Shown piece after piece: positions 3,996-58,623 of a stretch of 64,000 bases of DNA. The position numbers and the translations under genes are program-made. Each line of letters starts with the position of its first letter. Positions within the stretch are counted from its first letter, which is position 1. The notes under the pieces are model-generated. The model did not search any database, was not told where the DNA came from, and worked only from the letters and a program-made list of their open reading frames with translations. This DNA comes from an uncultured Anaerolineae bacterium. Lineage in GTDB: Bacteria > Chloroflexota > Anaerolineae > VGOG01. The stretch covers positions 3,638-67,637 of the forward strand of contig CAZEBW010000004.1 in NCBI GenBank assembly GCA_964510205.1. Reading direction: 5' to 3'.

Positions 3996-5183
3996 ATGCC
4001 ACAAGTCGTCCTGAAACGAGGCCGTGAAAAACCTATCCTGAATCGTCACCCCTGGATCTTCTCCGGGGCCATCCAGCGCGTCGAGGGGGAGTGTGATGAC
4101 GGGGATGTGGTGGAGGTGGCCGACCAGCGGGGGCGCTTCCTGGCGCGAGGCTACCTAAACCGCCGCTCTCAGATCGCGGTGCGTCTCCTCACCTGGGATG
4201 AGGACGAGGTCATCGGGACGGACTTCTGGCGGCGTCGGCTGGAGCGGGCCTTCGCCAGCCGGCAGGCCCTGGCCGCTGATCCCTCCACCGACGCCTACCG
4301 CCTGGTCAACGCCGAGTCCGACCTACTGCCCGGCCTGGTTCTCGATCGCTACGGCGATTACCTGGTGGCCCAGTTTCTAACGCTGGGAATCGAGCGGTGG
4401 AAGGCCGAACTGGTTGGCCTGGCGGCTGATCTGCTGCAGCCCAGGGGCGTCTACGAGCGGAGTGACGCGGAGGTGCGGGAGAAAGAGGGATTGGCTGCGG
4501 TCAGCGGCCTGCTGCACGGCGAGCAGCCGCCGGACCTGGTGGACATAATGGAGAACGGCCACCGTTTCTGGGTGGACATAAAGGCGGGGCACAAAACCGG
4601 CTTCTATCTCGACCAGCGGGAGAACCGTGCCAAGCTGACCAGGTACTGTGCGGGCAAAGCGGTGCTCAACGGCTTCGCCTACACGGGGGCTTTCGCCGTC
4701 TACGCCGCTGCGGCGGGGGCGGGGCGCATCACCAATGTGGAATCCTCGGCCGAGGCCCTGGCGCTGGCCCGGCGCAACATGGCCCTCAACGGTTTCGCCG
4801 ACCGCGACGACGGGTACATTGAGGGGGACGTTTTTCAGGTGCTGCGGGGGTATCGCGATCAGGGGCGGACCTTTGAACTGGTCATCCTCGATCCGCCGAA
4901 GTTCGCCCACTCCAAGGCCCAGGTGCAGTCAGCCTGCCGGGGCTACAAGGACATCAACTTGCTGGCCATGCAGCTCCTGGCCCCCGGCGGCGTCCTGGCC
5001 ACCTTCTCTTGCTCAGGCCGGGTGAGCGCCGATCTCTTCCAGAAGGTGCTCTTCGGGGCCAGCGTGGACGCCGCCCGCGATGTGCAGATCATCGAGAAGC
5101 TGTCCCAGTCCTCCGATCACGCCATCCTGCTCACCTTCCCTGAGTCGGAGTACCTGAAGGGGTTTGTGTGTCGGGTGTTTTGA
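3996..5183 (+). CDS. rlmI: 23S rRNA m5C1962 methyltransferase RlmI (PUA + class I SAM MTase)
   Basis: Near-collinear similarity to E. coli RlmI from N-terminus (KRGREKPILNRHPWIFSGAI) to C-terminus (EYLKGFVCRVF). Confidence 0.88.
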   Translation: MPQVVLKRGREKPILNRHPWIFSGAIQRVEGECDDGDVVEVADQRGRFLARGYLNRRSQIAVRLLTWDEDEVIGTDFWRRRLERAFASRQALAADPSTDAYRLVNAESDLLPGLVLDRYGDYLVAQFLTLGIERWKAELVGLAADLLQPRGVYERSDAEVREKEGLAAVSGLLHGEQPPDLVDIMENGHRFWVDIKAGHKTGFYLDQRENRAKLTRYCAGKAVLNGFAYTGAFAVYAAAAGAGRITNVESSAEALALARRNMALNGFADRDDGYIEGDVFQVLRGYRDQGRTFELVILDPPKFAHSKAQVQSACRGYKDINLLAMQLLAPGGVLATFSCSGRVSADLFQKVLFGASVDAARDVQIIEKLSQSSDHAILLTFPESEYLKGFVCRVF

Positions 5184-6229
5184 AATGCGGTGACCGCGCC
5201 CTGCTGTCCCACCTCACCCTCTATCTCAAACGCTACATCTAAGAACTGTTCTACCACCCAGATATTGGTCAGCAAGTGCTGGGTGATCTCGCAGGTGGTG
5301 AAAGCTGACGGGCCAGAGGCTAGGGCCAGGGGCAGAATCAACTGATCGGCCAGGTACTTGCCCAGGCAGGCGCCGCTTTGGTGGTAGGCCATGAACTCGC
5401 GGCAGGCATCCTCGGCCACTTTCTCGGCAGGCTTGCCGCGCTTTCCCAAAGAGGAGAAGCCGGCCACTGCATTCTCGTACTCCGCCGCGAGAAAGAGGAC
5501 GGTGCCTTTGCCTGGCGAGGGCGCGTCCACGATCTCTACCTGCGGCTCGAAACCGCGCTCTCGCAGATATCCCTCCGCGCGCTTCTGCTGCCTCTGTCCG
5601 ATGTGGGCGGGCAGGTTGGAGGCCGCGGAGACGCCCCACAGGCGCTTCAGTTCGCCCCGCTGGGTCAAATCCAGGCCCGAAAGTTCGCTCTCTCCTCGGC
5701 CCTGGATTGCCACCGTCATCTCCCCTCCGCCTATGGGATACCAGCCCCACTTCTCGACCTCGGCTTTAGCTTCCAGGCCCGTGCGGGCCAGGGTGGGCAG
5801 GTAGACGTGTTTGAGGTAGTGAAAAGAGGGGCTCCAGGCCACGTGGGTGCCGCCGCGTACGGTCAGGCGGGATGAGCCGGAGGCGAAGGCCAGGGGCAGC
5901 AGCAGGGTTTGGGCGACCAGACTGGTTGCGCCCGCGCTTCCGCCCTTGCGGGCCTCGGCCACGTCGAATAAATACTGCCCAGCGCGAGGCGACGACCGAG
6001 GCTTGAAAGTCAGCTCCAGGGAGCCCAGGCTGGCGCCTTCTAGCTCGGCCTGGCAGACTTGAGCTGTGGCCCGGACCCCGGTGAGGTGTTGGGCTTGCAG
6101 GCCGGGCCTGCGGCGCTGAGCGCGGACGTTCTCGATGCGTGTGGGTTGGCCCAGGATCGCGGATAGGGTCAGGGAAGTGCGCAGCACCTGCCCGCCTCCC
6201 TCGCCATAAGAGCCATTGATGACGATCAT
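5117..6229 (-). CDS. rtcA: RNA 3'-terminal phosphate cyclase RtcA
   Basis: The ORF extends to 6301, but the likely start is MIVINGSYGEGGGQVLRTSLTLS, matching the RtcA N-terminus; conserved H (RGGTHVAWSPS) region; C-terminus TNIWVVEQF. Confidence 0.8.
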   Translation of the reverse strand: MIVINGSYGEGGGQVLRTSLTLSAILGQPTRIENVRAQRRRPGLQAQHLTGVRATAQVCQAELEGASLGSLELTFKPRSSPRAGQYLFDVAEARKGGSAGATSLVAQTLLLPLAFASGSSRLTVRGGTHVAWSPSFHYLKHVYLPTLARTGLEAKAEVEKWGWYPIGGGEMTVAIQGRGESELSGLDLTQRGELKRLWGVSAASNLPAHIGQRQQKRAEGYLRERGFEPQVEIVDAPSPGKGTVLFLAAEYENAVAGFSSLGKRGKPAEKVAEDACREFMAYHQSGACLGKYLADQLILPLALASGPSAFTTCEITQHLLTNIWVVEQFLDVAFEIEGEVGQQGAVTAFQNTRHTNPFRYSDSGKVSRMA

Positions 6230-6385
6230 CGTTCCTCCTTCTTCCCTCAGTGGCAGATGCAAATACCATACCACATTGTCCCCAAAAGTCAAATGGGTCA
6301 TTTTTCGCCTGGCAAAAACGCTCAGCCATTGGCCATCTCTCCAACGTGTATTTCAATTTGGGGGCAAGACCGAGAGACAGCGTCA

Positions 6386-6475
6386 TGTGTCATTGCGAGG
6401 AGCGGAGCGACGAAGCAATCCCCTACGCACATTGGAGATTGCTTCGGGCGCACACACCGCGCCCTCGCAATGACA
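6386..6475. repeat. Palindromic repeat element, copy 1 (TGTCATTGCGAGGAGCGGAGCGACGAAGCAATC ... GATTGCTTCG ... CCTCGCAATGACA)
   Basis: 37-nt core identical to a second copy at 42157-42238; long terminal inverted repeat gtcattgcgagg / cctcgcaatgac. Confidence 0.7.
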
Positions 6476-6586
6476 TTTGCCCTAGAACTGAAACGCACAT
6501 CTCTCCAAATCGCTTTTTGCGTTGAATCCGACTATCGTGTATAATAAGGCAGTGTGTCCTTTACCACCTGAAGAGGAGGTCAATAA

Positions 6587-6739
6587 GTGATACCATTTCT
6601 GTCACGTGAAGAAGGACAGGGGCTCATTGAGTATGCCCTGATCATCGTCTTGGTAGCCATAGTCGTCACTGCCATCTTGCTGTTGCTGTGGGACAAGATA
6701 TACGTCTTGCTGAACCAGTTTATCAACTTCATTAGCTGA
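6587..6739 (+). CDS. Flp/Fap family type IVb (Tad) pilin, 50 aa; below the ORF-track length cutoff
   Basis: GTG start 8 nt after RBS aagaggagg. Translation VIPFLSREEGQGLIEYALIIVLVAIVVTAILLLLWDKIYVLLNQFINFIS carries the Flp signature G-x-x-x-EY-ALI plus a hydrophobic helix. Confidence 0.6.
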   Translation: MIPFLSREEGQGLIEYALIIVLVAIVVTAILLLLWDKIYVLLNQFINFIS

Positions 6740-6923
6740 CTCGTCGTCTTCGTGCACTCGACCTGACATTTGCCGTGTTTTTTCTTGCTTCAGTGGATCC
6801 AGATTCTGAGCAGAGCGGACCTTCGCGCCATTCGGCTGCGTGCGCTCAGGCCCGTGCTGATCCGGCCGCAATGACAGGCATGGGGGCCGCCTCTGCTGGA
6901 AATCCTGGCAGGCCAGGGGAAAC

Positions 6924-20459: not shown

Positions 20460-23400
20460 ACCTCCTTTCCCGTCCCCGGCGCTGGGATCTGAACCAGCAT
20501 TGTTGTTCCAGTGGGATCGGTCTCTTCTATTATAGCATCACCGCCAATACTTTGCAACATCAGTCGGCTGAGCCAGAGACCCAGACCTGCCCCTCCGCCT
20601 GGCTCCTTGGATGGGACTGGTTTGACGAAGAGACGTTGCTGGACTTGCAGTGGGATGCCCGGTCCTGTATCCTGAACCCGCACACAGATATTACTGTCGG
20701 TCAGACGACTGGTAACTGCTAACTGGCCACCCGCCTTCATTGCTCGGTAGGCATTGTCAACCAAGTTGTAGAAGACCTCAGCGATCTGACCGATCGGGGC
20801 CCGAATCTGCGGCAGCGATTGATCCAGGTCTAGGGTATGTTCGATCGTTGATCGAATGGGATCCGTTCGCCACTGTTCTCTCACTTTACCCACCACGTCA
20901 CTCAGCACTGCGTTAATGTCCACATCCTGATCCTCGACCTCTCGCAGCGGTTCTTGAATGCGCGCGATGATATCCGACGTATAGCGGGCGTTACGTTCGA
21001 TGATGTCAAGGATCTCTGCAATCGTATCATTCGACATATCAACGCGCTTCCGCAGGCGCGTCACGTTGGGAACGATGATGTTGAAGGTATTATTGACACG
21101 ATGTTGTAAAGCTGCGATGGCCGTGCCCAGTGTGGCCAAGCGCTTGGTCGCGATGACTTCACTGCGTGCCTCCTCATATAACCGGGCATTCTCAAGGGCA
21201 ATGGCTGCCTGGTTGGCCATAGAGGAGATGACCTGCAAGTCCTGTTCATCGTAGGCCTGCTCTCTTTCCCAGTCGTAGATAGCGATCACGCCCAGAACCC
21301 TATTCTCCAGAACCATCGGGACACCTATCCAAGATTTGGCGACACGCCCGATGAACTCTTGATGTCCGGGCTGTCCATACCACGCTTTAGATTCCACTTG
21401 GGTGCGATGCAGGATTGGCTTCTTGGTAAGGATGACTTCTTCGGTCTTACCCCGCTTCTCCATATCAGCCTTGCGGGGATCGTAATGCACCTGCTCACCG
21501 TGCTCCGTTGCCAGACCGAAGCGGATCATCCCTGTTTCCTCGTCATACAGCGCGATGTACATGTCCTGTGCGCCGGTCAACTCCCTGGCCTGCTCGTAGA
21601 TTAGCTCCAGAATCTCATCTTGCTTCAGACGAATACCGGAGGTTAGTGCCTGTCCTACCTCATTCAGTGCCGCCAACGCCTGAACGCGCCGTGCGAGCTG
21701 CTGGTTGATCTCGTAGTAAAGCGTTGCATTATCCAACGCGATTGCCGCTTGGTTGGCCACAGAGGAGATGACCTGCAAGTCCTGTTCATCGTAGGCCTGC
21801 TCTCTTTCCCAGTCATAAATGGCGATCATACCCAGTACCTTCTCACCTGTGACCATGGGAACGCCCAAGTAAGAAGGCTGAACACGCCCGATGAACTCTT
21901 GATGTCCGGGCTGTCCATACCACGCTTTAGATTCCACTTGGGTGCGATGCAGGATTGGCTTCTTGGTAAGGATGACTTCTTCGGTCTTACCCCGCTTCTC
22001 CATATCAGCCTTGCGGGGATCGTAATGCACCTGCTCACCGTGCTCCGTTGCCAGACCGAAGCGGATCATCCCTGTTTCCTCGTCATACAGCGCGATGTAC
22101 ATGTCCTGTGCGCCGGTCAACTCCCTGGCCTGCTCGTAGATTAGCTCCAGAATCTCATCTTGCTTCAGACGAATACCGGAGGTTAGTGTCTGTCCCACCT
22201 CGTTCACTGCCTGTATAGCTTTATACAAGCGTGCGCTTTTAATAGCAACCGCTGCTGCCCCAGCTAGGGCCTCAACCAGACGCATGTGATCGTCTGTAAA
22301 GGCTCCGATTTGGGTACTCTCCAGATTGAGCGTTCCAATCACTCTGTCACGGTGTATCAACGGTGTTGTGAGTTCGGATTGTACTTCCTCAAACCACTCC
22401 TTGTAGTACGGATCGCTTTTGATATCGTTGCAAAGATATGTCTTTCTACTCAAGGCAACGTGTCCGTTGATGCTCGTCTCGTCTAGGGGTAGTCTCGTGA
22501 GGGTTCGCGTCGGCGTCTCATCCCTCTTGTTTCTCGCCCCAAATCGCAGTTCACGTGTCCGCTCGTCCAGCAACCAAATACTCGTATACTTGGCTGGCGT
22601 CAGCCTGGCCGCTTGCTCTGCGATTTGCTCCAGCAGATCCTCTAGGGAAGCAGTGCCAATGAGCGCGTATAGGTTCTGAAGAGCTCTGATATCATCAATT
22701 CGCTCTTGTAGGCTAGTCTGAGCCTCTTCGTACACACGGGCGTTATAGATAGCTGTCGCCGCTTGATTAGCGAACAGCTCGATAGCCCCCCGTTGCTCAG
22801 GAGTGAAGGGTTGTCGGCTCCGGTAATTGACGAACATAGCGCCCACGGTTTCGCCTGCTGCTTCGAGGGGGACGGCGGCTGACGATAGGATTCCCTCGCG
22901 CACTACAAAGCGCTTTTCCGGGCGCTCAGGGCGCTCTACGGTGAATGGGCCGGTGAGCAGGGTATCCGTCTGAGTATCGGGAGAGTAGAGGGGCTCTCCA
23001 CCCTCGACCACTTTCACAACGACATCATCCTTGAATATTTCGTCCTTGACAACTGTGGGGTCTCGGCGCTCTCCTTCCAAGATAGGTGGCATGATGTAAC
23101 GGTCATCCGCCTCAACGTACTGGTACACATCCACGAGATCGGCACCCAATACACTCCTGGCACTTCGCGCCACCTGACGCAATACCTCTCTCAACCCCTG
23201 TGCCGAAAGCTCAGCCGAGAGTATTCGTCCCCCAATCTGGTGCAGCCTCTGCAAGACTGCAGCCCGGCTGGTTGCCTGCTCAAGAAGTTGAGCATTGTGT
23301 ACAGCCACGGCGGACTGGCTGGCCACCGCCTCTAACAGCATCTGATCGTGCTCGTCAAAGCCGCTCAGCCCGTCCATATCAGCAGAGATCACCCCAATAA

Positions 23401-27880: not shown

Positions 27881-27922
27881 CAGCCTGAAGTTTACCAGAT
27901 TGTGGATGAATAGTCAAGACGG

Positions 27923-27975
27923 TTCACTTTTCACGTTTTTTACGTTTCACGTTTCACGCTTCACGCATCACGTAG
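27923..27975. repeat. Heptamer tandem array TTCACGN x7, upstream of folC
   Basis: ttcacttttcacgttttttacgtttcacgtttcacgcttcacgcatcacg. Confidence 0.85.
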
Positions 27976-29502: not shown

Positions 29503-31119
29503 TTGATGAAAGCTATACTGTCTCCAAGTGGCAGACGTAAAACGTCAAGCGTGAAACGTGAAACGTCAAACGTAGAACGTCAAGCGTCAGGTGCCAGGGG
29601 TCAAACGTTGAGGTTCAAAGCTATCTTGGCGACCTTGCTGATAAGCTTGGGGGCGCTGATCTTGTGCCAATCCCTGAGGGTGGAAGGGTCGCCCGTCCCC
29701 GCCTCTCCTGTCCTCCAGACTGAGGAGGAGAGGACGGCGGCGAGCGACGCGCCGTATCGGGCCCGCATCGTGATCAGCACTTCCTCTGACTGGACGCGGC
29801 TCTACGTTCGAGGTGGAGAGCGCATTTTGAACGCCAAAACTGCTATCCTGCAGGGCGACGCCGCCACGACGAAAGCGGAGTGGGACGGCGACGAGCTCTA
29901 TTTGGAACAGCCTCTGGCCAATGCTCCAGCCCAGACGGTCAAAGTGCAGTACGATCTGGTGATGACGGGCCTGGACAGTGACGGCCACGTCTTCTTCGAG
30001 AGCCAGAAAGGCGATTTGGGCGTCACCACCACGGAGTTCTACAATTACAGCTCATCTTCCGCTACTCCCATCGCCTCCTGGTCCAATCTGCTGGACAAAG
30101 CGGGCGATCCTTCCAATCCCTTCTCTTTTTCCATAGCCAGTTCCCATTTCACAACGGGTGGTCCCCTGCCCCTGCGGCACGTCTCGCCCAGATTGGTTTT
30201 GGCCTTTTATTATCCCTGGTACGATCTCGATTCCTGGTCGAGCCCAGTTCTCGAGGACCATCCGCTCATGCCTGCTAGTTCCGGCGACGTGGAAGCCATC
30301 ACCAGGCACGTCACCTGGGCACAGCAGCATGGCATTCACGGCTTCATCTCGTCCTGGTGGGGTTCGGGCAACTACCGCGATGCCAATTTCGCCAAGTTGC
30401 TCTCCGTGGCGGAAGGCACCGATTTCAAAGCAACTATCTACTTCGAAACCCTGGGCGAACGTTTCAGGACCCCCCAGGACGTTGTTCATCAGTTGGAGTA
30501 CGTCCTGGATTCCTACAGCGATCACCCCAACTTCCTGCGCTATCGGGGCCAGCCGGTGATTTTTCTTTACGCTGTGGACCACGTAGCCAGAGAGCCCGGC
30601 CAACCCCCCCTTCAGTCCTGGCAAGCCATACTGGGGCAGATGCGGGCTGATGGTTACGATGCAGTGTGGCTCGGCCAGACCTTCGATCCCAGCTATCTGC
30701 AGGTGTTCGACGGCCTGCACGCCTACGGCTTCTATGCCCCAGATATGGCTGAGGTGTACGCTTCGGTTTCGGGCCAGGTGAGGAGCTATCAATTCCTGCA
30801 CGACCCGACCGCCGAGCGGAAGATCTGGGCGCCAGCGGTCATGCCGGGCTATGACGACGACCTGTTGGGCCGCCCAGGTTCCTGGTATCTGGATCGAGCC
30901 GGTGGGGACGCCTACGGCTTCACTTTCCAAGCGGCCATTCAGTCCCAGGCCGATTGGATCGTCATCACCAGCTTCAACGAGTGGTGGGAGCACACTCACA
31001 TCGAGCCCAGCGACCGCTACGGGTTCACTTATCTGGGGCTGACTAAGGAGTGGTCGGACGCTTTTCTGGCTGGAGCTCCTCAACTCACTTTCCTGCCCCT
31101 GATCACCAAGAACTGGTAG
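29503..31119 (+). CDS. Secreted putative glycoside hydrolase, GH99-like (endo-alpha-mannosidase family); true start probably TTG at 29608
   Basis: FYYPWYD...HGFISSWWG...ITSFNEWWEHTHIE resemble GH99 motifs. The first 35 codons are encoded by the heptamer array; a signal peptide MRFKAILATLLISLGALILC follows the TTG. Confidence 0.45.
   Translation: MMKAILSPSGRRKTSSVKRETSNVERQASGARGQTLRFKAILATLLISLGALILCQSLRVEGSPVPASPVLQTEEERTAASDAPYRARIVISTSSDWTRLYVRGGERILNAKTAILQGDAATTKAEWDGDELYLEQPLANAPAQTVKVQYDLVMTGLDSDGHVFFESQKGDLGVTTTEFYNYSSSSATPIASWSNLLDKAGDPSNPFSFSIASSHFTTGGPLPLRHVSPRLVLAFYYPWYDLDSWSSPVLEDHPLMPASSGDVEAITRHVTWAQQHGIHGFISSWWGSGNYRDANFAKLLSVAEGTDFKATIYFETLGERFRTPQDVVHQLEYVLDSYSDHPNFLRYRGQPVIFLYAVDHVAREPGQPPLQSWQAILGQMRADGYDAVWLGQTFDPSYLQVFDGLHAYGFYAPDMAEVYASVSGQVRSYQFLHDPTAERKIWAPAVMPGYDDDLLGRPGSWYLDRAGGDAYGFTFQAAIQSQADWIVITSFNEWWEHTHIEPSDRYGFTYLGLTKEWSDAFLAGAPQLTFLPLITKNW
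29534..29590. repeat. Heptamer tandem array CGTGAAA/CGTCAAG x7 (inverse orientation of the 27923 array), immediately after folC
   Basis: gacgtaaaacgtcaagcgtgaaacgtgaaacgtcaaacgtagaacgtcaagcgtcag; together with 27923-27975 it forms inverted repeats bracketing folC. Confidence 0.85.
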
Positions 31120-34815: not shown

Positions 34816-34890
34816 GTGATTCGTAGGTTCGTAGATTCGTAAATTCGTGGGTTCGTAGATTCGTAAGTTCGTAGATTCGTGTTACCGACT
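34816..34890. repeat. Tandem array of 8-mers RTTCGTRR x8
   Basis: gattcgtaggttcgtagattcgtaaattcgtgggttcgtagattcgtaagttcgtagattcgtg. Confidence 0.9.
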
Positions 34891-38448: not shown

Positions 38449-38580
38449 GGGTTCGTAGATTCGTAAATTCGTAAATTCGTAAATTCGTAGATTCGTAGAT
38501 TCGTGGGTTCGTGGATTTGATCCCGAATTTATGAGTCCCGAGTCTACGAATCTACCAGTTTCACGTTTCACGTTTTACGG
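38449..38580. repeat. Composite repeat block: TTCGTAR x9 direct, inverted partial copy, then TTTCACG x3
   Basis: gttcgtagattcgtaaattcgtaaattcgtaaattcgtagattcgtagattcgtgggttcgtgg ... tctacgaatctac ... tttcacgtttcacgttttacg. Confidence 0.9.
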
Positions 38581-38814: not shown

Positions 38815-38888
38815 GCGCCGCGACGTCATGTGATGAAGCCGCCGCGACGTCATATGATGAAGCGGCCTCGACGTCATATGATTAAGCG
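38815..38888. repeat. 24-nt tandem repeat x3 (GCCGCGACGTCATRTGATGAAGCS) with internal GACGTC / CATATG palindromes
   Basis: Read directly between the remnant ORF and the GT-C gene. Confidence 0.8.
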
Positions 38889-40990
38889 GCCTCGTCAATC
38901 AGGTGGGTGAAGATGGTGTAATCGGTGTCCATCTCTGCCTCAGCTCGCCAGTAGAGGGTCAGGTGGATCTCCTCGTCTGGCCTAAGCTCGACTTTGTCCA
39001 CTTTGTATCCGATCAGAGTGACCTTGTTATCCAGGTTGAAATCCAACGGGTTATCAATCGCTACCTCCCGACGTTCTCGCGGGAGCATCTTCAACTGACC
39101 GATGACGACGCTTGGGGGATCAAGTTTTGAACCAGTGGTGGGGTCGTAGTGCCCCACCTCAACTCGCACGAGGCTGGGCGCTTGGGCGTCCTCGCTGATG
39201 GGCAGCCGATAGGCGTCGGCGATGATCCCCCCTGGGGCCCACAAGCTGGTGGGATACGAACCCCAACCGGGATAGGTGTCCTCAGATCCCACTAGTTCGC
39301 CCCCGCGCCCCAGCAGGTGGATAAACAGGTAGTAGTCCTTCTCCTCCATCTCCGCCAGCCCCTGCCAGTAGAAAGTGACGCCCAGCGTCTCGCCCGGCCT
39401 GACCGTCTCTCTATCTAGTTTGAAACCGAGCAGTCGGATTTTCTCTCCAAAATCGTGGACCACCCCTGGCGGGACCTCGCTGGGGGAGACGATGGGCGGC
39501 CTGGCGTAGGCAGGGTGGATGTAGACAAATGGACAGAGGGCGGCGAAGGCGAACATGGCCAGACCTATCACCGTCACCAGGATGTTAACGTATCTCCCAG
39601 ATACCAGTTGGCTCAGGCCCAGCATCAGCAGGACGGATATGGCGGAGATGGCGGGAAATAGCAGCCGTCCCTGGCTGGCGGGCGTCGTCCACGTCCAGCG
39701 AACTAGTCCCGCGAAGACGATGCCCAGCCAGAGGATGAGGACAAAGAAACCAGGTTTTTCCCGTTTCACAGTACTTCCCTGGGCGTTTGGAGTGTTCGTA
39801 AACTGGTGTGTTTTGGGTCCAAAGGATGCGAAAAACCTGGTTTCTGACAACCAACGCCGTCTCACAAACCAAATCCCCAAGCCCACCAGGGCCAGCAAGC
39901 TTACCACGTCCAGGATGGCGTAGGCGGCGGGCGCAACCAAGATGCTGAACCAGCCAAACAGCGCCCAGAAAGACATGCGCAGGCCCCGAAACTCGCCCCA
40001 CAGTTCTGACAGATTCGATGGCCCACTATCTCGGCCCACCACGGCCAGCATGGCGTTGAGGCCGGTCGGGTCCCCGTAAAGCTGCCAATTCCTGACGTAC
40101 CACCAGCCAGCCACCGCCAGCACTACGGCAAGGACGATCAGCCCCCCGATCAACGGCCTCGCCGACCGGCGGCGGTAGGCTTGCACGACGAGGACGACGG
40201 CGGTCAAGATCAACAGGCCCAGGCCGCTGAGCTTGGAGAGGCAGGCCAAACCTAGGACGAGGCCCAACAACACGTAATACGCAATACGCAATACGAACAG
40301 GCGGCGTGTTGCGTACTGCGTATTGCGTATTTCGTATTGCGTATTGCGTACCAACAGAAGCAGCGTCAGTGACGATAGGAAGACCACTAGATTGTCGTTG
40401 TTGATGGAGCTGCTGATGAACAAGAACTGCGGGATGAAGGCGTTGATGGCTGCGGCGCCGAGGGCGAGGTGTTCGCGGTCAGGGAAGACCTCCAGAGCGA
40501 GTCTATGCGTCAAGAACACGGTGCCTGCCCCCAGGAGCACCGACAGCAGGCGGACGAGGTGCACCGCCAAAGCTGTGCCCTGAAAGGGGAAACTCTCCCG
40601 CCGGGTATGGACGATCACGTTCTTGTTGCCTGCATCCAGCGGCGTGCCGACGTTGCGCTGGGGATTGTACCAGAGTAGGTCCTCCGCCTCGCTGGTATCG
40701 CTCCAGAAAGTGGTCAGTGCGCCGATCAGGTAATACAGAGGCGGCTGGCTGCCCTCCTGCTCCCACAATCCCGGCTCTTCGGGGTTCTGCACCGGCAGTC
40801 CCTTCCCATCAGCAAGATGCTTGATGAAGAAGTAGTGGTAGATCTCATCGGGCGCCTCGAAGATGGGCGTGACCAGGCTGTAGGTGATGCCCAGGGCGAT
40901 GAACGTGGTTAGAATTAGGGTTATGGCCCAGTGTTGTCTCATAGTGCAAAGTCCTACGTCCCACGTCCTACGTCTCACGTCCGAAGTCAT
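38882..40990 (-). CDS. PMT/ArnT-like GT-C glycosyltransferase (GT39/GT83-like), paralog 1, with 2 C-terminal beta-domain repeats
   Basis: ~12 TM N-terminal domain with loop-1 motif FEAPDEIYHY; C-terminal repeats ...LTLYWQ...DYxxFxHL...; N-terminus and an internal site encoded by heptamer arrays. Confidence 0.6.
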   Translation of the reverse strand: MTSDVRRRTWDVGLCTMRQHWAITLILTTFIALGITYSLVTPIFEAPDEIYHYFFIKHLADGKGLPVQNPEEPGLWEQEGSQPPLYYLIGALTTFWSDTSEAEDLLWYNPQRNVGTPLDAGNKNVIVHTRRESFPFQGTALAVHLVRLLSVLLGAGTVFLTHRLALEVFPDREHLALGAAAINAFIPQFLFISSSINNDNLVVFLSSLTLLLLVRNTQYEIRNTQYATRRLFVLRIAYYVLLGLVLGLACLSKLSGLGLLILTAVVLVVQAYRRRSARPLIGGLIVLAVVLAVAGWWYVRNWQLYGDPTGLNAMLAVVGRDSGPSNLSELWGEFRGLRMSFWALFGWFSILVAPAAYAILDVVSLLALVGLGIWFVRRRWLSETRFFASFGPKTHQFTNTPNAQGSTVKREKPGFFVLILWLGIVFAGLVRWTWTTPASQGRLLFPAISAISVLLMLGLSQLVSGRYVNILVTVIGLAMFAFAALCPFVYIHPAYARPPIVSPSEVPPGVVHDFGEKIRLLGFKLDRETVRPGETLGVTFYWQGLAEMEEKDYYLFIHLLGRGGELVGSEDTYPGWGSYPTSLWAPGGIIADAYRLPISEDAQAPSLVRVEVGHYDPTTGSKLDPPSVVIGQLKMLPRERREVAIDNPLDFNLDNKVTLIGYKVDKVELRPDEEIHLTLYWRAEAEMDTDYTIFTHLIDEAA
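40268..40347. repeat. In-frame inverted heptamer arrays (CAATACG x3 / CGTATTG x5) inside a GT-C CDS
   Basis: taatacgcaatacgcaatacgaacaggcggcgtgttgcgtactgcgtattgcgtatttcgtattgcgtattgcgta; encodes RNTQYEIRNTQYATRR. Confidence 0.85.
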
Positions 40991-41035
40991 TGACTTAGGA
41001 CCTCGGACTTAGGACCTAGGACTATTCTCACTTTG
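40921..41035. repeat. Inverted heptamer arrays (GTCCYAC x4 / GGACYTAG x4) spanning a GT-C stop/start junction
   Basis: gtcctacgtcccacgtcctacgtctcacgtccgaagtcattgacttaggacctcggacttaggacctaggac. Confidence 0.85.
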
Positions 41036-43332
41036 CTCAACAGGATTCGGTTGCCCATCAGCCGGCCGTCCTGGTCGAGGAGGTCTAAGCGATTCCCGGT
41101 CTCAGCCAGGTAGAGCCCCACCTCGATCTCGTAGACGTCGGGAGGGGCGTCGGGGGCGATGTCTAGCTCGTATTGGTCCACGACGATTTGCCCCCTGGCC
41201 CAGGCGGAAGTGGAAGGCTGCGGCTGGCGGTCCGCTCCTGCCCAGATCTGATCTCCCTCTCTCAGCAGGTGGACGAAGACGGTGTAGGCGTCCCTCATCT
41301 CGGCCAGGCTCTGCCAGTACAGAGTAAGGTGGATGGCTTCGCCCGGCTCGGCCTTTCTGCGGTCCATCTCGTAGCCCACCAGGGCGATCTGGCCCCCAAA
41401 GTTGAAATGCACCGGATTGGGCAGCCCGGTTTCGGACCTGGGCAAGACCCCGATTTTCCCGAAGCGCACGTTATCTCCCGCAAGTTCTCCATTGGCCCCG
41501 TACACGGGTAGGCGTTCGCCCGTCGCAGCGTCGTAAGGCCCCACCTCCAGTTGGGCCGAACTGGGGGCGTAGGTCGTCTCTGGCAGCGTCAGGGTGTAGG
41601 CGTCCGCGATGGCGTCGCCGGCCTGCCACAGCGTGGTAGGGAAGCTGCCCAGTCCGGGGAAGGTGTTCCTCTGGGCTATGACGAGATCGTTTTCGTCCAG
41701 CAGGTGAACGAAGACGGCGTAGTCCCGGTTCATCTCGGCCAGGGATTGCCAGTACAGGGTGACGGTTAGCGAATCGCCGGGTTGCAGGTTGTAGGTTGTA
41801 GGTTGCAGGTTGTAGCCCAGCAGCTTCATCACTCCGCCGAAGTTCATATCCAGGCGATTTGGGATGGCCTCGATCTGTTCGGGAGAGAGCAGGGGCGGCC
41901 TGGCGTAGGCTGGGGCGATGTAGGCCACGGGACAGATGCAGGCGAACACGAACATCGCTCCGGCCAGCAGGGCTGTGGCCTTGCCTCGCCAGCGGGTGGG
42001 AATGAGTTGTAACCATCCCAGCAGGGGCAGGATGGCGAGGGACGCAGTGGCTGGGAAGAGGTGCCGCCCAGAGGGTGCAAAGACCCACTGCAGCCAGCGC
42101 AGCAGGGCGGCGAAGACCAGTAAGCTCCACAGCAGGAGCAGGGCTAAGCCCTGCCATGTGTCATTGCGAGGAGCGGAGCGACGAAGCAATCTCCTCCTTG
42201 CGGCTTGGGGATTGCTTCGCTTCGCTCGCAATGACACATCCGTGAGTTTGGTCCCGTTTCTAACGACTAGAACTAACAGCCCCAGGGCGCCCAGGCGCAC
42301 CACAATTCGCAGGACGGTGTAGATCCAAGGGTGGACGTGGACATTGCCCCAGCCGAAGGCGGCCCAAAAGGACAGCTCCATCTGAGAGAACTCGTGGATC
42401 AACTCGCCGAGGGTGAGCTGCGGCCGGCCGGGGCCCACGATGGCTTGGTGGATCTGCACCCCCAGCGGGTCGCCGTGCAATCGCCAATTCAAAGTATACC
42501 ACCATCCGGCTACGATGGCAACAACAGCAAAGACGATCAGGCATGCCTTGAGAAAGGCCCACCCAGAGCCTCTGCGCCAGGCGGCCATGGCGATGGCCAC
42601 GACCGCAGCAGGCAGCAGGGCCAGCGCGCTCGCTTTGGTGATGAGGGCCAATCCCACGGTCAGCCCCAGCCAGACCAGACGGCGGGTGGAGAGGCCCCTT
42701 CTCCTCAGGCGGACCATGAGCCACAGGGCCAGGGTGCACAGGGCCGACACTGCGCTGTCGTTGCTCACTGCACTTGATATAAAGATGAACTGCGGATTGA
42801 AGGCCACCAGGCCCGCTGCACCAGCGGCGAAAGAACGTTGCCGGGGGAACAACTCCAGCGCAATCAGATAGGTGGCCAAGACGGTGGTTGCTCCCCAGAG
42901 CACCGACACCAGGCGGGCCATACGAACGGCCAACACCGCGCCGCGATAGGGGAAGCGTTCCTCGTTGGTGTGAAGCACTCGGTTTTTGTTGTCGTTGACC
43001 GTGCCAGGCGCGCTGTAGCCCCAGAAAGGATTGAGCCACGCCAGGTTCTGCCAATCGTCGTCTTCGATCCAGAACGTAGCCAAAGCCGCCGTGACATAAT
43101 ACAGTGGGGGCTGGGTGGCCTCCTGTCTCATCAGAGGCTGCGTTTGCGCCAGGCTCTGCACCGGCAGACCTTTCCCGTCGCCCAGCCATTTGACGTAAGG
43201 GTAATGCCACAACTCGTCGGGCTTCTCGAAGAGGGGCGTGGCTGCGTTGTAGGCGATGCCCAGGGCGAAAAACGCGGTTAGGATTAGGATGATGGCCCAA
43301 TGTTGTTTGATGGTCCGAGGTCCCCTATCCAT
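40987..43332 (-). CDS. PMT/ArnT-like GT-C glycosyltransferase, paralog 2, with 3 C-terminal repeats
   Basis: FEKPDELWHYPY loop motif; contains in-frame GGTTGTA repeats (TYNLQPTTYNLQP) and the palindromic element (SLRAKRSNPQAARRRLLRRSAPRNDT). Confidence 0.6.
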   Translation of the reverse strand: MDRGPRTIKQHWAIILILTAFFALGIAYNAATPLFEKPDELWHYPYVKWLGDGKGLPVQSLAQTQPLMRQEATQPPLYYVTAALATFWIEDDDWQNLAWLNPFWGYSAPGTVNDNKNRVLHTNEERFPYRGAVLAVRMARLVSVLWGATTVLATYLIALELFPRQRSFAAGAAGLVAFNPQFIFISSAVSNDSAVSALCTLALWLMVRLRRRGLSTRRLVWLGLTVGLALITKASALALLPAAVVAIAMAAWRRGSGWAFLKACLIVFAVVAIVAGWWYTLNWRLHGDPLGVQIHQAIVGPGRPQLTLGELIHEFSQMELSFWAAFGWGNVHVHPWIYTVLRIVVRLGALGLLVLVVRNGTKLTDVSLRAKRSNPQAARRRLLRRSAPRNDTWQGLALLLLWSLLVFAALLRWLQWVFAPSGRHLFPATASLAILPLLGWLQLIPTRWRGKATALLAGAMFVFACICPVAYIAPAYARPPLLSPEQIEAIPNRLDMNFGGVMKLLGYNLQPTTYNLQPGDSLTVTLYWQSLAEMNRDYAVFVHLLDENDLVIAQRNTFPGLGSFPTTLWQAGDAIADAYTLTLPETTYAPSSAQLEVGPYDAATGERLPVYGANGELAGDNVRFGKIGVLPRSETGLPNPVHFNFGGQIALVGYEMDRRKAEPGEAIHLTLYWQSLAEMRDAYTVFVHLLREGDQIWAGADRQPQPSTSAWARGQIVVDQYELDIAPDAPPDVYEIEVGLYLAETGNRLDLLDQDGRLMGNRILLSKVRIVLGPKSEVLSQ
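42157..42238. repeat. Palindromic repeat element, copy 2, inserted in frame inside a GT-C CDS
   Basis: atgtgtcattgcgaggagcggagcgacgaagcaatc...gattgcttcgcttcgctcgcaatgacacat. Confidence 0.75.
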
Positions 43333-43583: not shown

Positions 43584-45926
43584 TTATTTGACTCGTACTT
43601 TGCTCAACAGCACGCGGTCGTCCAGCAGCCGCCCGCCCTCCCCCACGATTCTCAGGCGGTCGCCTGTCTCCGCCAGGTAGAAGCCTATCTCGACGTCGTA
43701 CACGTCGGCGGGAGTGTCGGCATAGATGGTAAGTTCGTATTCGTCCACTATCGTCTGGCCGGGCTGCCAAGTCGAAGTGGGGGACTTGCCGTCCAGGGGC
43801 CAGCTATCCTCTTGGGCCCAGATGCGGTTCTCTTCTCCCAAAACGTGGGTGAACACGGAGTAGTCTTCTTTCATGTCAGCCAGCCCCTGCCAGTAGAGGG
43901 TCAGGTGGATGGTCTCGCCGGGCGCGGCCGTCCGTCGGTCCATATCGTATCCGACGAGGGCGATCTTGTTTGCGAAGTTGAAGTGGACGGGGTTGGGCGC
44001 CTCTGCTTCAGCTCGGGGCAGGATCTCGAATTGGTGGAAGCGGACGTTGTCGCCCAGGGCCTCTCCATTGGGAGCGTAGGCCGACAGCCGCTCCCCGGTG
44101 TCGAAGTTGTAGAGTCCCACGGCCAGTTGGGCTTGGTTGGGGGCGAAGGCCGTCTCTGGCAGGATGAGGACGTAGCGGTTGGCGATGGCCTCTCCTGGCG
44201 ACCAGAGGCTGGTGGGATAGAGGCCCTGTCCGGGGTACATGTCTCGTTGGGCGACGATGAGCTCGGTTTGGTCGAGCAGGTGGACGAAGGTGCTGTAGTT
44301 CTCGTTCATTTCGGCCAGGGCTTGCCAGTAGAGGGTGACCTCCAGTGAATCGCCAGGTTTCAGGTGACTGGGTATTGGGTATTGGGTATTGGGTATTGCG
44401 TAGCCTAGCAGCTTGATCACTTCGCCGAAGGAGACGTCGAGGCGGTTGGGGATGGCCGCGATCTCTGCTGGTGAGAGGGGTTGGGGTTTGGCGTAGGCGG
44501 GGGCGATGTAGCGGAAGGGGGTGGCGGCGGCGATGATGAACATCAGGCTGCCCAGCAGGCAGGCCAGCGTTTTGGTGTAAGCGAAGCGGCGGTTTTTGTA
44601 AGCGAAGCGACGGCGTCGGGGCACGAACTGGCTCAGGCCCAAGAAGAGCAGGATGGAGAGGGCCGAGATAGCTGAAAAGACCAGTCGCCCTTGAGAGGAC
44701 CAGGTCAGCAGCGCCCAGCGGATCAGGGATATGAACACGATGGCCGGCCAGGCCAGCAGCAGCGCTACTTTGATCCAGGCCTCTGGCCGTGGTTTGTCTC
44801 CAATCAATTTGCGAATCAGGAAGGCGATCACCCCCAGGGCGGCTGCTATGGCCATGAGATTCAGCAGGTCGTAGACCCAGGCATCCATGGGCACGTTCAC
44901 CCCGCCGAACAGGCCCCAGTACGACATGGCGAAGCCCTCACGCTCCCCCCACAATTGACGGAGGGTGGCGGGCGGGTGGCGCCGGCCCAGAATGTCCAGG
45001 AACACGTTTAGCCCCAGGGGGTCGCCGTAGAGCTTCCAATTCCTGACAAACCACCAGCCTGACAGGAGTGCAGCCAGACCCACCACGATGAGGCCGCCTT
45101 GCAGGAGAGTTCGCCAGGAGCGTTGACGGTAAGCAGCGTAGGCGACGGTCAGGCCCGCCAGCGCCAGGAGACCGATGGCGCTCTCTTTGGTCAGGATGGC
45201 CAATCCTATGACCAGCCCCAGCCATGCCCAATCGCGGTTTGCGGTTTGCGGTTTGCGATTTGCGATTTGTGGTTTGCGATTTGTGATTTTGACCATCATC
45301 AGCAGGGCCAGGCTGCACAAGGGCACCACCAAGTTGTCGTTGTTGATCGCGCCGCTGACGAACAGGAACATGGGAGTGAAGGCGTTGACGGCGGCTGCGC
45401 CCAGGGCCAAGTCCTCGCGGCCGGGGAAGATCTCCAGAGCGAGCAGGTAAGTCAGCAGCACCGTGGCCGCTCCCATCAACACCGAGAGGAAGCGTATGAG
45501 GTGCACGGCCAGGGCCGTCCCATGCCAGGGGAAGGCCTCTTGTTCGGAGTGTATGACCAAATTGGTGTTGCCGTCGGCGGTCAGCACGCCGTTATCCACG
45601 TGGGGGTTGGGCCATAACAGGGGCGGCTGGCCGTGGTAGGCGTCGTCGGTGTCAATCCAGAAAGTGGCCAGGGCGCCCAGGGCGTAGTACAGGGGCGGCT
45701 GGCTCCCCTCCTGCCGCCAGGGCTGATCAATGCCGGGATCCTGCACGGGTAGACCGTGGCCGTCCGCCAGGTGCTTGACGAAGGGGTAGTGCCACAACTC
45801 GTCGGAGGCCTCGAAGATGGGTGTGACTACGCTGTAGGCAACGCCCAGGGCGATAAACGTGGCCAGGATGAGGGCGATGGCTAAAGGTTGTAGGTTGTAG
45901 GTTCTAGATTTTAGGGTTGCGTTCAT
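43584..45926 (-). CDS. PMT/ArnT-like GT-C glycosyltransferase, paralog 3
   Basis: FEASDELWHYPF motif; in-frame heptamer insertions at 44361-44400 (GGTATTG; AIPNTQYPIPS), 44575-44610 and 45225-45290 (GCGRTTT; KITNRKPQIANRKPQTANRD). Confidence 0.6.
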   Translation of the reverse strand: MNATLKSRTYNLQPLAIALILATFIALGVAYSVVTPIFEASDELWHYPFVKHLADGHGLPVQDPGIDQPWRQEGSQPPLYYALGALATFWIDTDDAYHGQPPLLWPNPHVDNGVLTADGNTNLVIHSEQEAFPWHGTALAVHLIRFLSVLMGAATVLLTYLLALEIFPGREDLALGAAAVNAFTPMFLFVSGAINNDNLVVPLCSLALLMMVKITNRKPQIANRKPQTANRDWAWLGLVIGLAILTKESAIGLLALAGLTVAYAAYRQRSWRTLLQGGLIVVGLAALLSGWWFVRNWKLYGDPLGLNVFLDILGRRHPPATLRQLWGEREGFAMSYWGLFGGVNVPMDAWVYDLLNLMAIAAALGVIAFLIRKLIGDKPRPEAWIKVALLLAWPAIVFISLIRWALLTWSSQGRLVFSAISALSILLFLGLSQFVPRRRRFAYKNRRFAYTKTLACLLGSLMFIIAAATPFRYIAPAYAKPQPLSPAEIAAIPNRLDVSFGEVIKLLGYAIPNTQYPIPSHLKPGDSLEVTLYWQALAEMNENYSTFVHLLDQTELIVAQRDMYPGQGLYPTSLWSPGEAIANRYVLILPETAFAPNQAQLAVGLYNFDTGERLSAYAPNGEALGDNVRFHQFEILPRAEAEAPNPVHFNFANKIALVGYDMDRRTAAPGETIHLTLYWQGLADMKEDYSVFTHVLGEENRIWAQEDSWPLDGKSPTSTWQPGQTIVDEYELTIYADTPADVYDVEIGFYLAETGDRLRIVGEGGRLLDDRVLLSKVRVK

Positions 45927-57603: not shown

Positions 57604-58623
57604 TTAATCCTGCGAATCCGCCGTTATCCTCCCTAACACTTGCCAATACGACTTAATCCGCGCTGCTCGCAGCGGTCGCTTGTGCCCCACCAGCCACTTG
57701 AGGGCTTCTACGATCAGTTGATAGAAATAGGTGACTAGGATAAACAACCGCAACGCCTCTGCTTGCCACGGGCCGTGATGCTTGCGGAAATAGCGGATTT
57801 TGCTGCGCTGGAATTGGATGTGCTGGAAGGATTTGACCTGCTCGCTCGATTGCCCCCCGTGGTGGACCACTTTGGCCGTGGACAGGTAGATTATCTTCCA
57901 GCCTCGCTCCTGGGCTCGACGGCACCAATCCAATTCCTCAGAGTACATGAAGAAGCCTTCGTCTAGTGGCCCCACCTGTTCGATGGCCTCGCGGCGGGCC
58001 AGCAAGCAGGCTCCAGTGACCCAGTCCACCTCTTGCACCTCGTCGTCCGGGCGGTCTGCGATGTAGTAGCGTCCGGCGACGCGGTTGTGGGGGAACCACT
58101 GCTGCATGATCGTGCTTTCCAGGAAAGCGGTGGTCAGGGTCGGGAAGCGGCGGCGCGAGGACTGGATGCTGCCGTCGGGGTTCAGGAGCTGCGGCCCCAG
58201 CGCGCCCACTTGAGGATGCTCGTCCATGTACTCGACCATCGTCGCCAGCGCGTCGCCGACCACTTCCGTGTCCGGGTTCAGCAGCAGGACGTATCGCCCC
58301 CGGCTGACGGCGATGCCCTGGTTGTTGCCCACGGTGAAGCCCACGTTCTCGCGGTTGGCGATGAGCCGCACCTGGGGGAACTCCTTTTCAACCATCGCTG
58401 CGCTGCCATCTGAGGAAGCGTTGTCTACTACGATGACCTCGAGCCGGAAGTTGGAAGGTGGAAGGTGGAAGATGGAATCGAGACAACGCTTCAGGAGGTC
58501 TCGTACATTCCAGTTCACGATCACAATGGACAGATCCATTCTAACCTTCGACCTCCAATCTCCAACCTCTAACCTCCAACCTCCATTTGCTAAGACGGCG
58601 GCTTCTAGGCCGCCGCGTCTCAA
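57604..58623 (-). CDS. Glycosyltransferase family 2 (true start probably MDLSIVIVNWN near 58539)
   Basis: IVNWNVRDLL...VVDNASSDGS; the annotated N-terminal extension is encoded by GGTTGGA-type heptamers. Confidence 0.75.
   Translation of the reverse strand: MRRGGLEAAVLANGGWRLEVGDWRSKVRMDLSIVIVNWNVRDLLKRCLDSIFHLPPSNFRLEVIVVDNASSDGSAAMVEKEFPQVRLIANRENVGFTVGNNQGIAVSRGRYVLLLNPDTEVVGDALATMVEYMDEHPQVGALGPQLLNPDGSIQSSRRRFPTLTTAFLESTIMQQWFPHNRVAGRYYIADRPDDEVQEVDWVTGACLLARREAIEQVGPLDEGFFMYSEELDWCRRAQERGWKIIYLSTAKVVHHGGQSSEQVKSFQHIQFQRSKIRYFRKHHGPWQAEALRLFILVTYFYQLIVEALKWLVGHKRPLRAARIKSYWQVLGRITADSQD
58440..58600. repeat. Inverted GGTTGGA/GGAAGGT heptamer arrays flanking the GT2 start codon (one array in frame inside the CDS)
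   Basis: gaagttggaaggtggaaggtggaagatgg (58443-58472) vs cctccaatctccaacctctaacctccaacctcc (58548-58590). Confidence 0.8.

Follow-up and report, generated by a model that had tools for sequence, protein, structure and literature searches.

Palindromes in an Anaerolineae contig are probably head-to-head dimers of a CGTC-type tagged hairpin that flanks a clade of Ssn nuclease genes

Introduction

Repetitive extragenic palindromes (REPs) of the CGTC type consist of a CGTC tag (variants TGTC and CCTC), a stem that starts with A-T followed by T-A, and a CCA-like tail, and the families CGTC-1 to CGTC-4 include dRS3 of Neisseria as well as RPE-4 and RPE-6 of Rickettsia conorii (Di Nocera, De Gregorio and Rocco 2013, PMC3733652). 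Most copies are intergenic, and dimers are mainly arranged head-to-head, i.e., with the tags outside, heterodimers being common. Dimers that lie in frame within genes encode 20-30 amino acids, as in RC0249 of R. conorii (SFLRKQES...LLDSRFRGND), and CGTC-3 dimers of R. palustris are found within PBP1C, Pol I and DnaE2. CGTC repeats were described in five phyla, Chloroflexi not among them, and no dedicated transposase or other enzyme was found; no REP-associated tyrosine transposase (RAYT) was flanked by CGTC repeats, and members with a bulged stem may have escaped detection (PMC3733652). Here, we compare these repeats with two long palindromes in a 64,000-nt stretch of DNA from an uncultured Anaerolineae bacterium, which is referred to as the window: copy 1 lies between rtcA and a small open reading frame (ORF) resembling flp pilin genes, and copy 2 is located inside a gene for a GT-C-type glycosyltransferase.

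Hairpins of this kind are bound and cut by Ssn proteins, which are small single-domain GIY-YIG nucleases (cd10448) (Chenal et al. 2025, PMC11893778). The hairpins studied are the Neisseria NTS, CGTCATTCCCGCGMAVGCGGGAATCYRG, and, more generally, the Ssn-related motifs (SRM). Ssn cleaves only single-stranded DNA (ssDNA) and only one strand of it, at a distance of a few nucleotides from the tag on its 5' side. Cleavage is controlled by the three bases (GTC) that precede the palindrome and binding by the C that immediately follows it, whereas the SRM loop is dispensable and can be extended (PMC11893778). In N. meningitidis, SsnA reduces transformation by NTS-bearing DNA. The ssn genes themselves have their motifs as flanks (PMC11893778), which was re-checked in records of Rhizobium, Shinella, Azospirillum and N. 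gonorrhoeae.

Two head-to-head dimers in the window

An identical string of 33 nt, TGTCATTGCGAGGAGCGGAGCGACGAAGCAATC, occurs at positions 6388-6420 and 42159-42191, in both cases on the plus strand (0 expected in 100 shuffles). Together with the preceding CATG, the exact identity amounts to 37 nt (6384-6420 and 42155-42191). Both sites are long imperfect palindromes with the ends TGTCATTGCGAG ... CTCGCAATGACA, and the four exact TGTCATTGCGAG arms of the window are paired as two dimers. The original prediction of an 85-nt element present twice stands as far as two palindromes with a shared exact 37-mer are concerned; however, from outer tag to outer tag they measure 88 and 78 nt, and they are not copies of one sequence. 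Copies 1 and 2 agree in the left unit and in the outermost 12 nt of the right arm, but not in the spacer or the inner portion of the right unit. Both are heterodimers, in which a long-form unit is combined either with a unit containing a GGGCGC...GCGCCC hairpin (copy 1) or with a short-form unit (copy 2; Table 1).

As had been suggested, both copies fold as strong hairpins. Folding yields a long hairpin on either strand with energies of -47 to -55 kcal/mol and z-scores of -6 to -7.7 compared to dinucleotide shuffles. Further copies were not found in the window, where sequences similar to the arm are as frequent as expected by chance; a suspected degenerate copy at 6865-6876 proved to be such a chance match. 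As read from the sequence, two of the three frames of each strand are free of stop codons throughout the element, and the remaining one is stopped by the TGA of AATGAC. The small ORFs that had been attributed to the elements indeed run through them (6216-6473, 6250-6525, 6257-6544 and 41936-42322).

A tagged hairpin with an interrupted stem

To define the repeat, IMG/VR contigs were scanned with the loose pattern GTCATTGCGAG-N3-18-GAAGCAATC, which matched at least 120 contigs. Of the 181 arms in the IMG/VR matches, 72 are accompanied by an inverted partner at a distance of up to 260 nt and 109 are not. Since most arms are unpartnered, the basic unit is one arm, i.e., half of the palindrome. 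This unit reads (C/T)GTC, ATTGC, GA, X, GAA, GCAAT, C, in which X is a small, freely varying hairpin, and is composed of a lower stem of 5 bp, a GA/GAA internal loop, an upper stem of 2-7 bp and a loop of 3-7 nt. The ATTGC...GCAAT stem is present in every unit. GTC is preceded by T or C in 383 of 404 units (95%; 238 loci), with TGTC at all four units of the window and CGTC in the copies of Methylosinus, R. palustris and one of the ssn loci described below (L322). When units were anchored by the stem only (ATTGCGA..GAAGCAAT), GTC was found upstream in 406 and C downstream in 412 of 415 units, most of which had GTC and C in the search pattern that selected them. Behind GCAAT, the 404 units continue with CTC (184), CCA (79) or CCC (66), and the window copies with CCC and CTC.

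The variable part X occurs as a short form, GC-GNA-GC, as a long form, G-GA-GC-GNA-GC-GA-C, and as many unrelated perfect stems, e.g., TCCCGA-TAAA-TCGGGA and GGCTGAC-TTC-GTCAGCC. Among 151 distinct variants, 34% have a terminal stem of at least 3 bp and 26% one of at least 4 bp, compared to 1.5% and 0.3% of shuffles, respectively, and GNA triloops predominate. The mismatches in the X stems are G.A in 38 cases and C.T in none, which indicates that the motif has a strand. When covariation was looked for across the super-family with the pattern GTCAT-NNN-GA..GAA-NNN-AT, almost only the TGC/GCA class was present in the loci. Sister palindromes adjoin the present class in two loci, one with the ends TGTCATTCTGAG ... 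CTCGTCAGAATGACA (L058, 5706-5800) and one with the start GTCATCCTGAG (L080), which suggests that there are related tagged families in which changes in the stem compensate each other. Full-text searches of the literature for DNA strings of the present and the sister families retrieved only unrelated primer matches.

Association with a clade of Ssn nucleases

With four Ssn proteins as queries, 80 ssn loci were retrieved from metagenome contigs. Two of them have the present hairpin class on both sides of the ssn gene: in L322, dimers at 382-507 and 817-903 enclose ssn at 523-812, and in L328, dimers at 1384-1468 and 1781-1863 enclose ssn at 1486-1776, with the right unit of the last dimer being the exact core of the window 33-mer. 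Both proteins match the Pfam GIY-YIG family with E-values of about 1e-15. A hidden Markov model built from 69 Ssn proteins was then applied to the window and to 118 loci that had been picked solely for the 33-mer, and it detected an ssn gene beside the units in two of the latter, L151 and L226. In L151, from a metagenome-assembled genome (MAG) of Stellaceae, the 33-mer lies 9 nt before the ssn start codon ATG and a dimer is found behind the stop codon; this ssn gene extends from 6005 to 6296 (stop-to-stop ORF 5946-6296) and encodes 97 amino acids. In L226 (4284-5282), from an uncultured low-GC MAG, at least 12 units of several sub-types, the exact 33-mer among them, lie on both sides of one ssn gene, an arrangement reminiscent of the BIME or NIME mosaics known for other REP families.

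The Ssn proteins of these four loci have the motif REKQIKAGSR in common, whereas the other 67 carry a K.W.R.WK-type motif and no KAGSR. The hairpins differ between the two groups as well: those flanking the other 67 genes have stems such as ATTCC, ATCCC, ATGCC, ATGGC and ATACC, and never ATTGC-GA. A profile search with the four REKQIKAGSR proteins retrieved thousands of relatives, of which three were chosen for taxonomic spread, from R. palustris CP076678 (L330), the cyanobacterium Hydrocoleum sp. CS-953 (L331) and a low-GC metagenomic contig (L332); all three are flanked by the ATTGC-GA class. The R. palustris gene lies at 1146551-1146838 and encodes 95 amino acids. Flanking by this class is thus found for seven of seven examined REKQIKAGSR genes and for none of 67 other ssn genes. 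In viral contigs, two scans for a unit together with a GIY-YIG motif gave 0 matches.

The same data bear on the possibility that the palindromes are REPINs, i.e., doublets of REPs mobilised by a RAYT, a Y1/HUH transposase. The architecture is the same, with two inverted tagged hairpins, a long hairpin of about 80 nt and no target duplication. However, the tag is (C/T)GTC and not GTAG, ten RAYT/TIRYT queries (phmmer, E<1e-3) had 0 matches in the window or among 11,709 ORFs around 238 copies, and the gene flanked by this hairpin class encodes a GIY-YIG protein, in line with the lack of RAYTs flanked by CGTC repeats mentioned above; a REPIN is therefore very unlikely. All-against-all clustering of the ORFs of at least 90 amino acids around the 238 copies did not reveal any transposase family enriched beside them, but only phage structural genes and housekeeping families; the small ssn genes were missed by this clustering because only two loci had one.

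Dispersal across phyla

In species-representative genomes, the exact 33-mer is present in at least 118 contigs, with about 20 phyla among the matches listed. These include Anaerolineae, Dehalococcoidia and Chloroflexia; Alpha-, Beta-, Gamma- and Delta-proteobacteria; Bdellovibrionota, Campylobacterota, Verrucomicrobiota, Planctomycetota (including an anammox MAG), Omnitrophota, Nitrospinota, Nitrospiraceae, Rhodothermales, Bacteroidota, Ignavibacteriota and KSB1; and Vulcanimicrobiota, Binatia, Rifleibacteriota, Zhuqueibacterota, Saccharibacteria, Patescibacteria and Clostridia. Nearly all genome matches are MAGs, and a contaminant stitched into them during assembly or binning could create identity across phyla. 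However, every copy has unique flanks, some copies lie in megabase-long contigs, and others are found in complete replicons of cultured strains, namely R. palustris CP076678 and plasmid pOB3b1 of Methylosinus trichosporium OB3b, which carries a CGTC-tagged dimer with a CCA tail between convergent genes; moreover, among orthologues the intragenic copy and its host gene have diverged in parallel. An artefact can therefore practically be dismissed. Units are also present in prophage records of Helicobacter canis, less exact matches are found in phage contigs and in plasmids of cultured Methylosinus, and two IMG/VR contigs (L046 and L020) contain tandem unit arrays with periods of 33 and 43 nt.

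The position of the repeats relative to genes could indicate a main role at the RNA level, for example as a 3'-end stabiliser, a terminator or an intergenic processing or translation signal, with spread being secondary. In a crude survey of gene context, genomic dimers were located between convergent or co-directional genes, with 21 between convergent and 0 between divergent ones, and, based on equally crude gene calls, single units between co-directional genes are sense in 42 and antisense in 21 cases. Phage-like contigs (L003, L006, L036, L091, L107 and others) carry single units of either orientation between genes, 5-30 nt ahead of a ribosome-binding site. The inner hairpin co-varies, and many REPs have been argued to act as RNA (PMC3733652). 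On the other hand, the window copies do not fit such a role, as one lies in a divergent promoter spacer and the other within a coding sequence; no T-run follows the hairpin, and Rfam has 0 matches at the gathering threshold in the window, where the best sub-threshold models are microRNA or CRISPR direct repeat models with E-values of at least 0.5. In addition, all six units of the IMG/VR contig L015 are antisense to genes, and Neisseria SsnA does not bind the RNA form (PMC11893778). An RNA-level main role is therefore considered improbable, but an RNA role could coexist with one at the DNA level.

Boundaries of the dimers and insertion signature

For 104 head-to-head dimers, the median length is 83 nt. 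Conservation ends at the base outside GTC/GAC, which is T/C on the left and A/G on the right, and past this base palindromy drops to random level. Direct repeats in the flanks (2-8 nt, offsets of 0-4) were not more frequent than in permutation controls, so the 104 dimers show no target-site duplication. The classical miniature inverted-repeat transposable element (MITE), a deletion derivative of an insertion sequence (IS) with a DDE transposase that is moved via its terminal inverted repeats, is therefore not an adequate model. The elements are small, palindromic and multi-copy as expected of a MITE, and in the Vulcanimicrobiota MAG ER2 (L135, L160, L171, L179, L181 and L211) the dimer makes up the core of a larger repeat that has inverted ends of its own, CAGGAGTTACGCA ... 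TGCGTAAGTCCTG, and 6-bp target duplications, e.g., GTTAAA, TTATTA and TCGTAT. These duplications, however, belong to the outer element and not to the dimer; the hairpin can thus hitch-hike within a true MITE. Single units are common, as shown by the unpartnered arms, no transposase family is enriched near the copies, and no IS with ends matching TGTCATTGCGAG was found in 1.9 Mb of flanks, so that an origin of the dimers as MITEs is hardly credible. Of the label MITE/REP-like originally given to the palindromes, the REP-like part holds, in the sense of a widely dispersed tagged dimer, and the MITE part does not.

Copy 2 inside the glycosyltransferase gene

As proposed before, copy 2 is translated in frame within the gene at 40987-43332, which is the middle one of three tandem GT-C paralogues (38882-40990, 40987-43332 and 43584-45926; PMT_2/DUF2142) with 45-51% identity, the first two of which overlap by 4 nt. 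The peptide encoded by the insert is SLRAKRSNPQAARRRLLRRSAPRNDT, copy 2 being read as DVSLRAKRSNPQAARRRLLRRSAPRNDT, and corresponds approximately to residues 364-392, with a predicted helix on either side. When the paralogues are aligned, it falls into a variable stretch between hydrophobic segments, at which one paralogue is gapped and the other has unrelated filler; the element is absent from this site in both. In an AlphaFold model of the protein, residues 364-392 have a predicted local distance difference test (pLDDT) score below 50 (segments 360-374 and 379-392) and lie between helices 335-369 and 391-421, which is weakly consistent with a loop between helices.

A database search with the GT-C protein returned one identical entry and about 34 orthologues with 68-81% identity, the named ones being assigned to Anaerolineae, Anaerolineales or Chloroflexi. 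The site is empty (RNRAKL-ERPTRLGLALL) in 13 of 34 orthologues, and 11, which are among those most similar to the window protein (P0002-P0013), have the element at this very site, with P0009 carrying a second copy besides the first. Ten others contain unrelated inserts at this position (alignment columns 643-772), e.g., SRSQSLAADLAIRRSPTGSPDPAGANCDVLKLE and the heptamer-coded NLPIYRSTNLPIYQSTN, which marks the loop as an insertion hot spot for several types of repeats. At the DNA level, the empty site AAACTG-GAACGACCCACCCGGCTA-GGCTTAGC is opposed to the filled site AAACTC-ACGGATG, element, CATGGCAG-GGCTTAGC, with a net gain of 75 nt (25 codons) in the window gene and of 72 nt in P0002. A direct duplication of the target is missing at this site, too, and the three bases adjoining the tags co-vary (ATG/CAT versus ACG/CGT).

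Because the element is absent from the 13 orthologues and both paralogues, the intragenic copy is, as judged from these alignments, a derived 25-codon insertion in a variable loop. The alternative that it is ancestral coding sequence and resembles copy 1 by chance or convergence could draw on the conservation of the peptide in about 11 orthologues. It is opposed, however, by the empty sites, by the zero chance expectation of an exact 37-nt match and by the occurrence of the same DNA as non-coding sequence in many phyla, and is left with next to no probability. The condition originally named as refuting the element, namely that only two copies exist and the intragenic one is ancestral, does not hold, given the wide dispersal of the element and the derived state of the insertion. 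All insert-bearing GT-C genes are intact, and the earlier reading of the element as tolerated in coding sequence is supported.

Genomic context and other repeats of the window

The coordinates of the elements and their neighbours are compiled in Table 1. The true start of rtcA is likely an ATG at about 6229, ahead of which a GGAGG is located, and copy 1 occupies the spacer of a divergent gene pair. Its predicted position between genes and the assignment of rtcA were confirmed; the assignment of the other neighbour as a Flp pilin gene relies on a sub-threshold match.

Table 1. Positions of the hairpin elements, neighbouring genes and tandem arrays in the window
Feature	Position	Strand	Remarks
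Copy 1, 88-nt head-to-head dimer, TGTC tags outside	6388..6475	.	rtcA / flp-like spacer
Copy 1 unit A, long form	6388..6423	+	TGTC-ATTGC-GA-[G-GA-GC-GGA-GC-GA-C]-GAA-GCAAT-C + CC tail
Copy 1 unit B	6435..6475	-	TGTC-ATTGC-GA-[GGGCGC-GGTGTGT-GCGCCC hairpin]-GAA-GCAAT-C + tail
Copy 2, 78-nt head-to-head dimer within GT-C coding sequence	42159..42236	.	minus-strand reading (D)VSLRAKRSNPQAARRRLLRRSAPRND(T)
Copy 2 unit A, long form	42159..42194	+	same 33 nt as in copy 1 unit A
Copy 2 unit B, short form	42208..42236	-	TGTC-ATTGC-GA-[GC-GAA-GC]-GAA-GCAAT-C
rtcA, RNA 3'-phosphate cyclase	5117..6301	-	Pfam RTC, E=3e-79
50-aa Flp/Fap-pilin-like ORF	6587..6739	+	Flp_Fap match E=9e-4, below gathering score
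Copy 2 host gene, 781-aa GT-C-type glycosyltransferase	40987..43332	-	Pfam PMT_2, DUF2142, PMT
GT-C heptamer arrays	40268-40350, 41780-41815, 44369-44402, 45234-45289, 45885-45915		
Further 7-/8-nt tandem arrays	27919-27973, 29535-29589, 34818-34880, 38452-38517, 46411-46446, 58446-58585		in/near intergenic regions

Several other repeats are present in the window. The three GT-C paralogues contain tandem heptamers (CAATACG/GCGTATT, GGTTGTA, TGGGTAT, GCGATTT and AGGTTGT), which are translated in frame, e.g., as RNTQYEIRNTQY, TYNLQPTTYNLQP and NRKPQIANRKPQTANR. Of the many further 7- and 8-nt arrays, several form long-range inverted pairs, e.g., 27938-27973 with 29535-29570 and 46408-46453 with 58538-58583. 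A direct repeat of 300 nt with 100% identity is found at 21342-21641 and 21882-22181 (spacing of 540 nt), and a repeat of 149 nt with 79% identity lies just upstream of each of its copies. On the minus strand, 54140-55860 comprises approximately 12-13 copies of a periodic repeat of 126 nt (42 codons) with 60-90% identity, which probably encodes a repeat-domain protein. The only match to the published SRM string (see below) is located at 51802-51832 on the minus strand, CGTCTTTCCCCCCGTGACGGCAGCCGCCTGG; it is not hairpin-like and is probably due to chance.

Interpretation and possible mechanism

Taken together, we assign a probability of roughly three in four to the interpretation that the two palindromes are head-to-head dimers of a CGTC-type tagged hairpin, an Ssn-related motif that flanks the ssn genes of the REKQIKAGSR clade, and that the window copies are passive, dispersed members of this family, which is most likely their status. 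We infer that Ssn recognizes the window copies and that its activity spreads the family. A REKQIKAGSR-clade Ssn would bind the lower stem, the tag and the trailing C on ssDNA and nick 5' of the tag, and its activity, or the ensuing recombination and repair, may be responsible for both spread and sequence constraint. In the ancestor of an Anaerolineae sub-clade, copy 2 would have entered a loop of the GT-C protein that is short, variable and positively charged, thereby adding 25 codons, and would have survived there because two of the three frames of the element are open on each strand.

Several observations weigh against this interpretation. The four published CGTC families have an uninterrupted stem of 8-9 bp and a loop of 4-5 nt, whereas the stem of the present class is interrupted. 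The published SRM string, HGTCWYN(0-2)YYVSBRHN(0-5)WNVSBRGN(0-2)RNCYNB, fits NTS, but none of the three unit types of the window; the class was thus probably not counted by Chenal et al. (PMC11893778). The documented role of Ssn in Neisseria is to restrict transformation. The hidden Markov model found no ssn gene in the 64-kb window, and Chloroflexota are not represented among the named KAGSR-type Ssn matches, most matches being unnamed. Given that the survey of gene context contained 0 divergent dimers, copy 1 is located in an unusual place. For copy 2, filled and empty sites differ by about 20% in sequence and their flanks cannot be aligned cleanly, and the AlphaFold model of the GT-C protein is of low confidence (mean pLDDT of 62).

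A further-reaching proposal is that the hairpin class and the REKQIKAGSR clade constitute an active selfish system that crosses phyla, possibly with phages as carriers, and in which a GIY-YIG ssDNase mobilises the repeats without target duplication. We regard this as tentative and rather unlikely. If true, a strong sequence constraint imposed by the enzyme would explain the identical 33-mer from Chloroflexota to Patescibacteria; the system would answer the question raised in 2013 of what spreads CGTC-type REPs, and it would represent a transposition-like mechanism built from a GIY-YIG nuclease and ssDNA hairpins. An identical 33-mer in about 20 phyla indicates that a protein acting in trans imposes strong constraint, that horizontal spread is ongoing, or both.

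The kind of element is already known, as it is a CGTC REP or Ssn-related motif, and in-frame palindromes are known from Rickettsia. New are the interrupted-stem hairpin class, which escapes the published consensus and has its own Ssn sub-clade, and its presence in Chloroflexota and many other phyla with an identical 33-mer across them. A previously unmatched hairpin class is hereby tied to a specific Ssn sub-clade, and repeats of the CGTC/SRM type are extended to Chloroflexota and phage contigs. For genome annotation, it is relevant that the hairpins give rise to spurious small ORFs (CHCEERSDEAI, SLRGAERRSNL and LLRFARNDT) as well as to 25-residue inserts in real proteins of many phyla, both of which can be recognized and flagged. 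Ssn proteins are also sought as site-specific ssDNA cutters, and the candidate pair would add a recognition sequence with a replaceable upper hairpin.

Comparison with known systems

REPINs and RAYTs (Bertels and Rainey 2011; Nunvar 2010; Ton-Hoang 2012) resemble the present elements in their inverted tagged doublets, which form a hairpin of about 80-100 nt, in the lack of target duplication and in a cognate single-copy gene with the repeats as flanks. Unlike the present class, with its identical 33-mer and its flanked GIY-YIG gene, they have a GTAG tag, a Y1 HUH transposase, mostly vertical inheritance and lineage-specific sequences.

Palindromic elements inserted in frame in protein genes of Rickettsia were reportedly described by Ogata et al. 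in 2000. Copy 2 is comparable to them as a selfish palindrome that lies in frame, adds a few residues where a surface or loop region tolerates them and leaves the gene intact; however, it belongs to another sequence family and another host phylum, and the GT-C site is a hot spot for unrelated repeats.

The CGTC REPs have in common with the present class the (C/T)GTC tag, a stem starting with AT, head-to-head dimers with a short spacer, heterodimers, mostly intergenic copies and some in-frame dimers, with the peptide of RC0249 given above corresponding to SLRAKRSN...LLRRSAPRND in the window. CGTC-3 of R. palustris and the present class also both have GTCATTGC...GCAATCCA.

From SRM and NTS, the present class differs in the ATTGC/GCAAT stem, which is broken by the GA/GAA internal loop and followed by a second, variable hairpin, in partner Ssn proteins that form their own group, with REKQIKAGSR replacing the K.W.R.WK-type motif, and in its occurrence in Chloroflexota and many non-proteobacterial phyla. 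The similarities comprise the HGTC tag 5' of the hairpin, the A-T at the start of the stem, the invariant C behind the palindrome, the orientation of the motif and its hundreds of copies. At the family level, the repeats flank a single-domain GIY-YIG gene of about 95 codons on one or both sides, as do SRM and NTS, and the dispensable and extendable loop of these motifs is in agreement with the freely varying upper hairpin of the present class.

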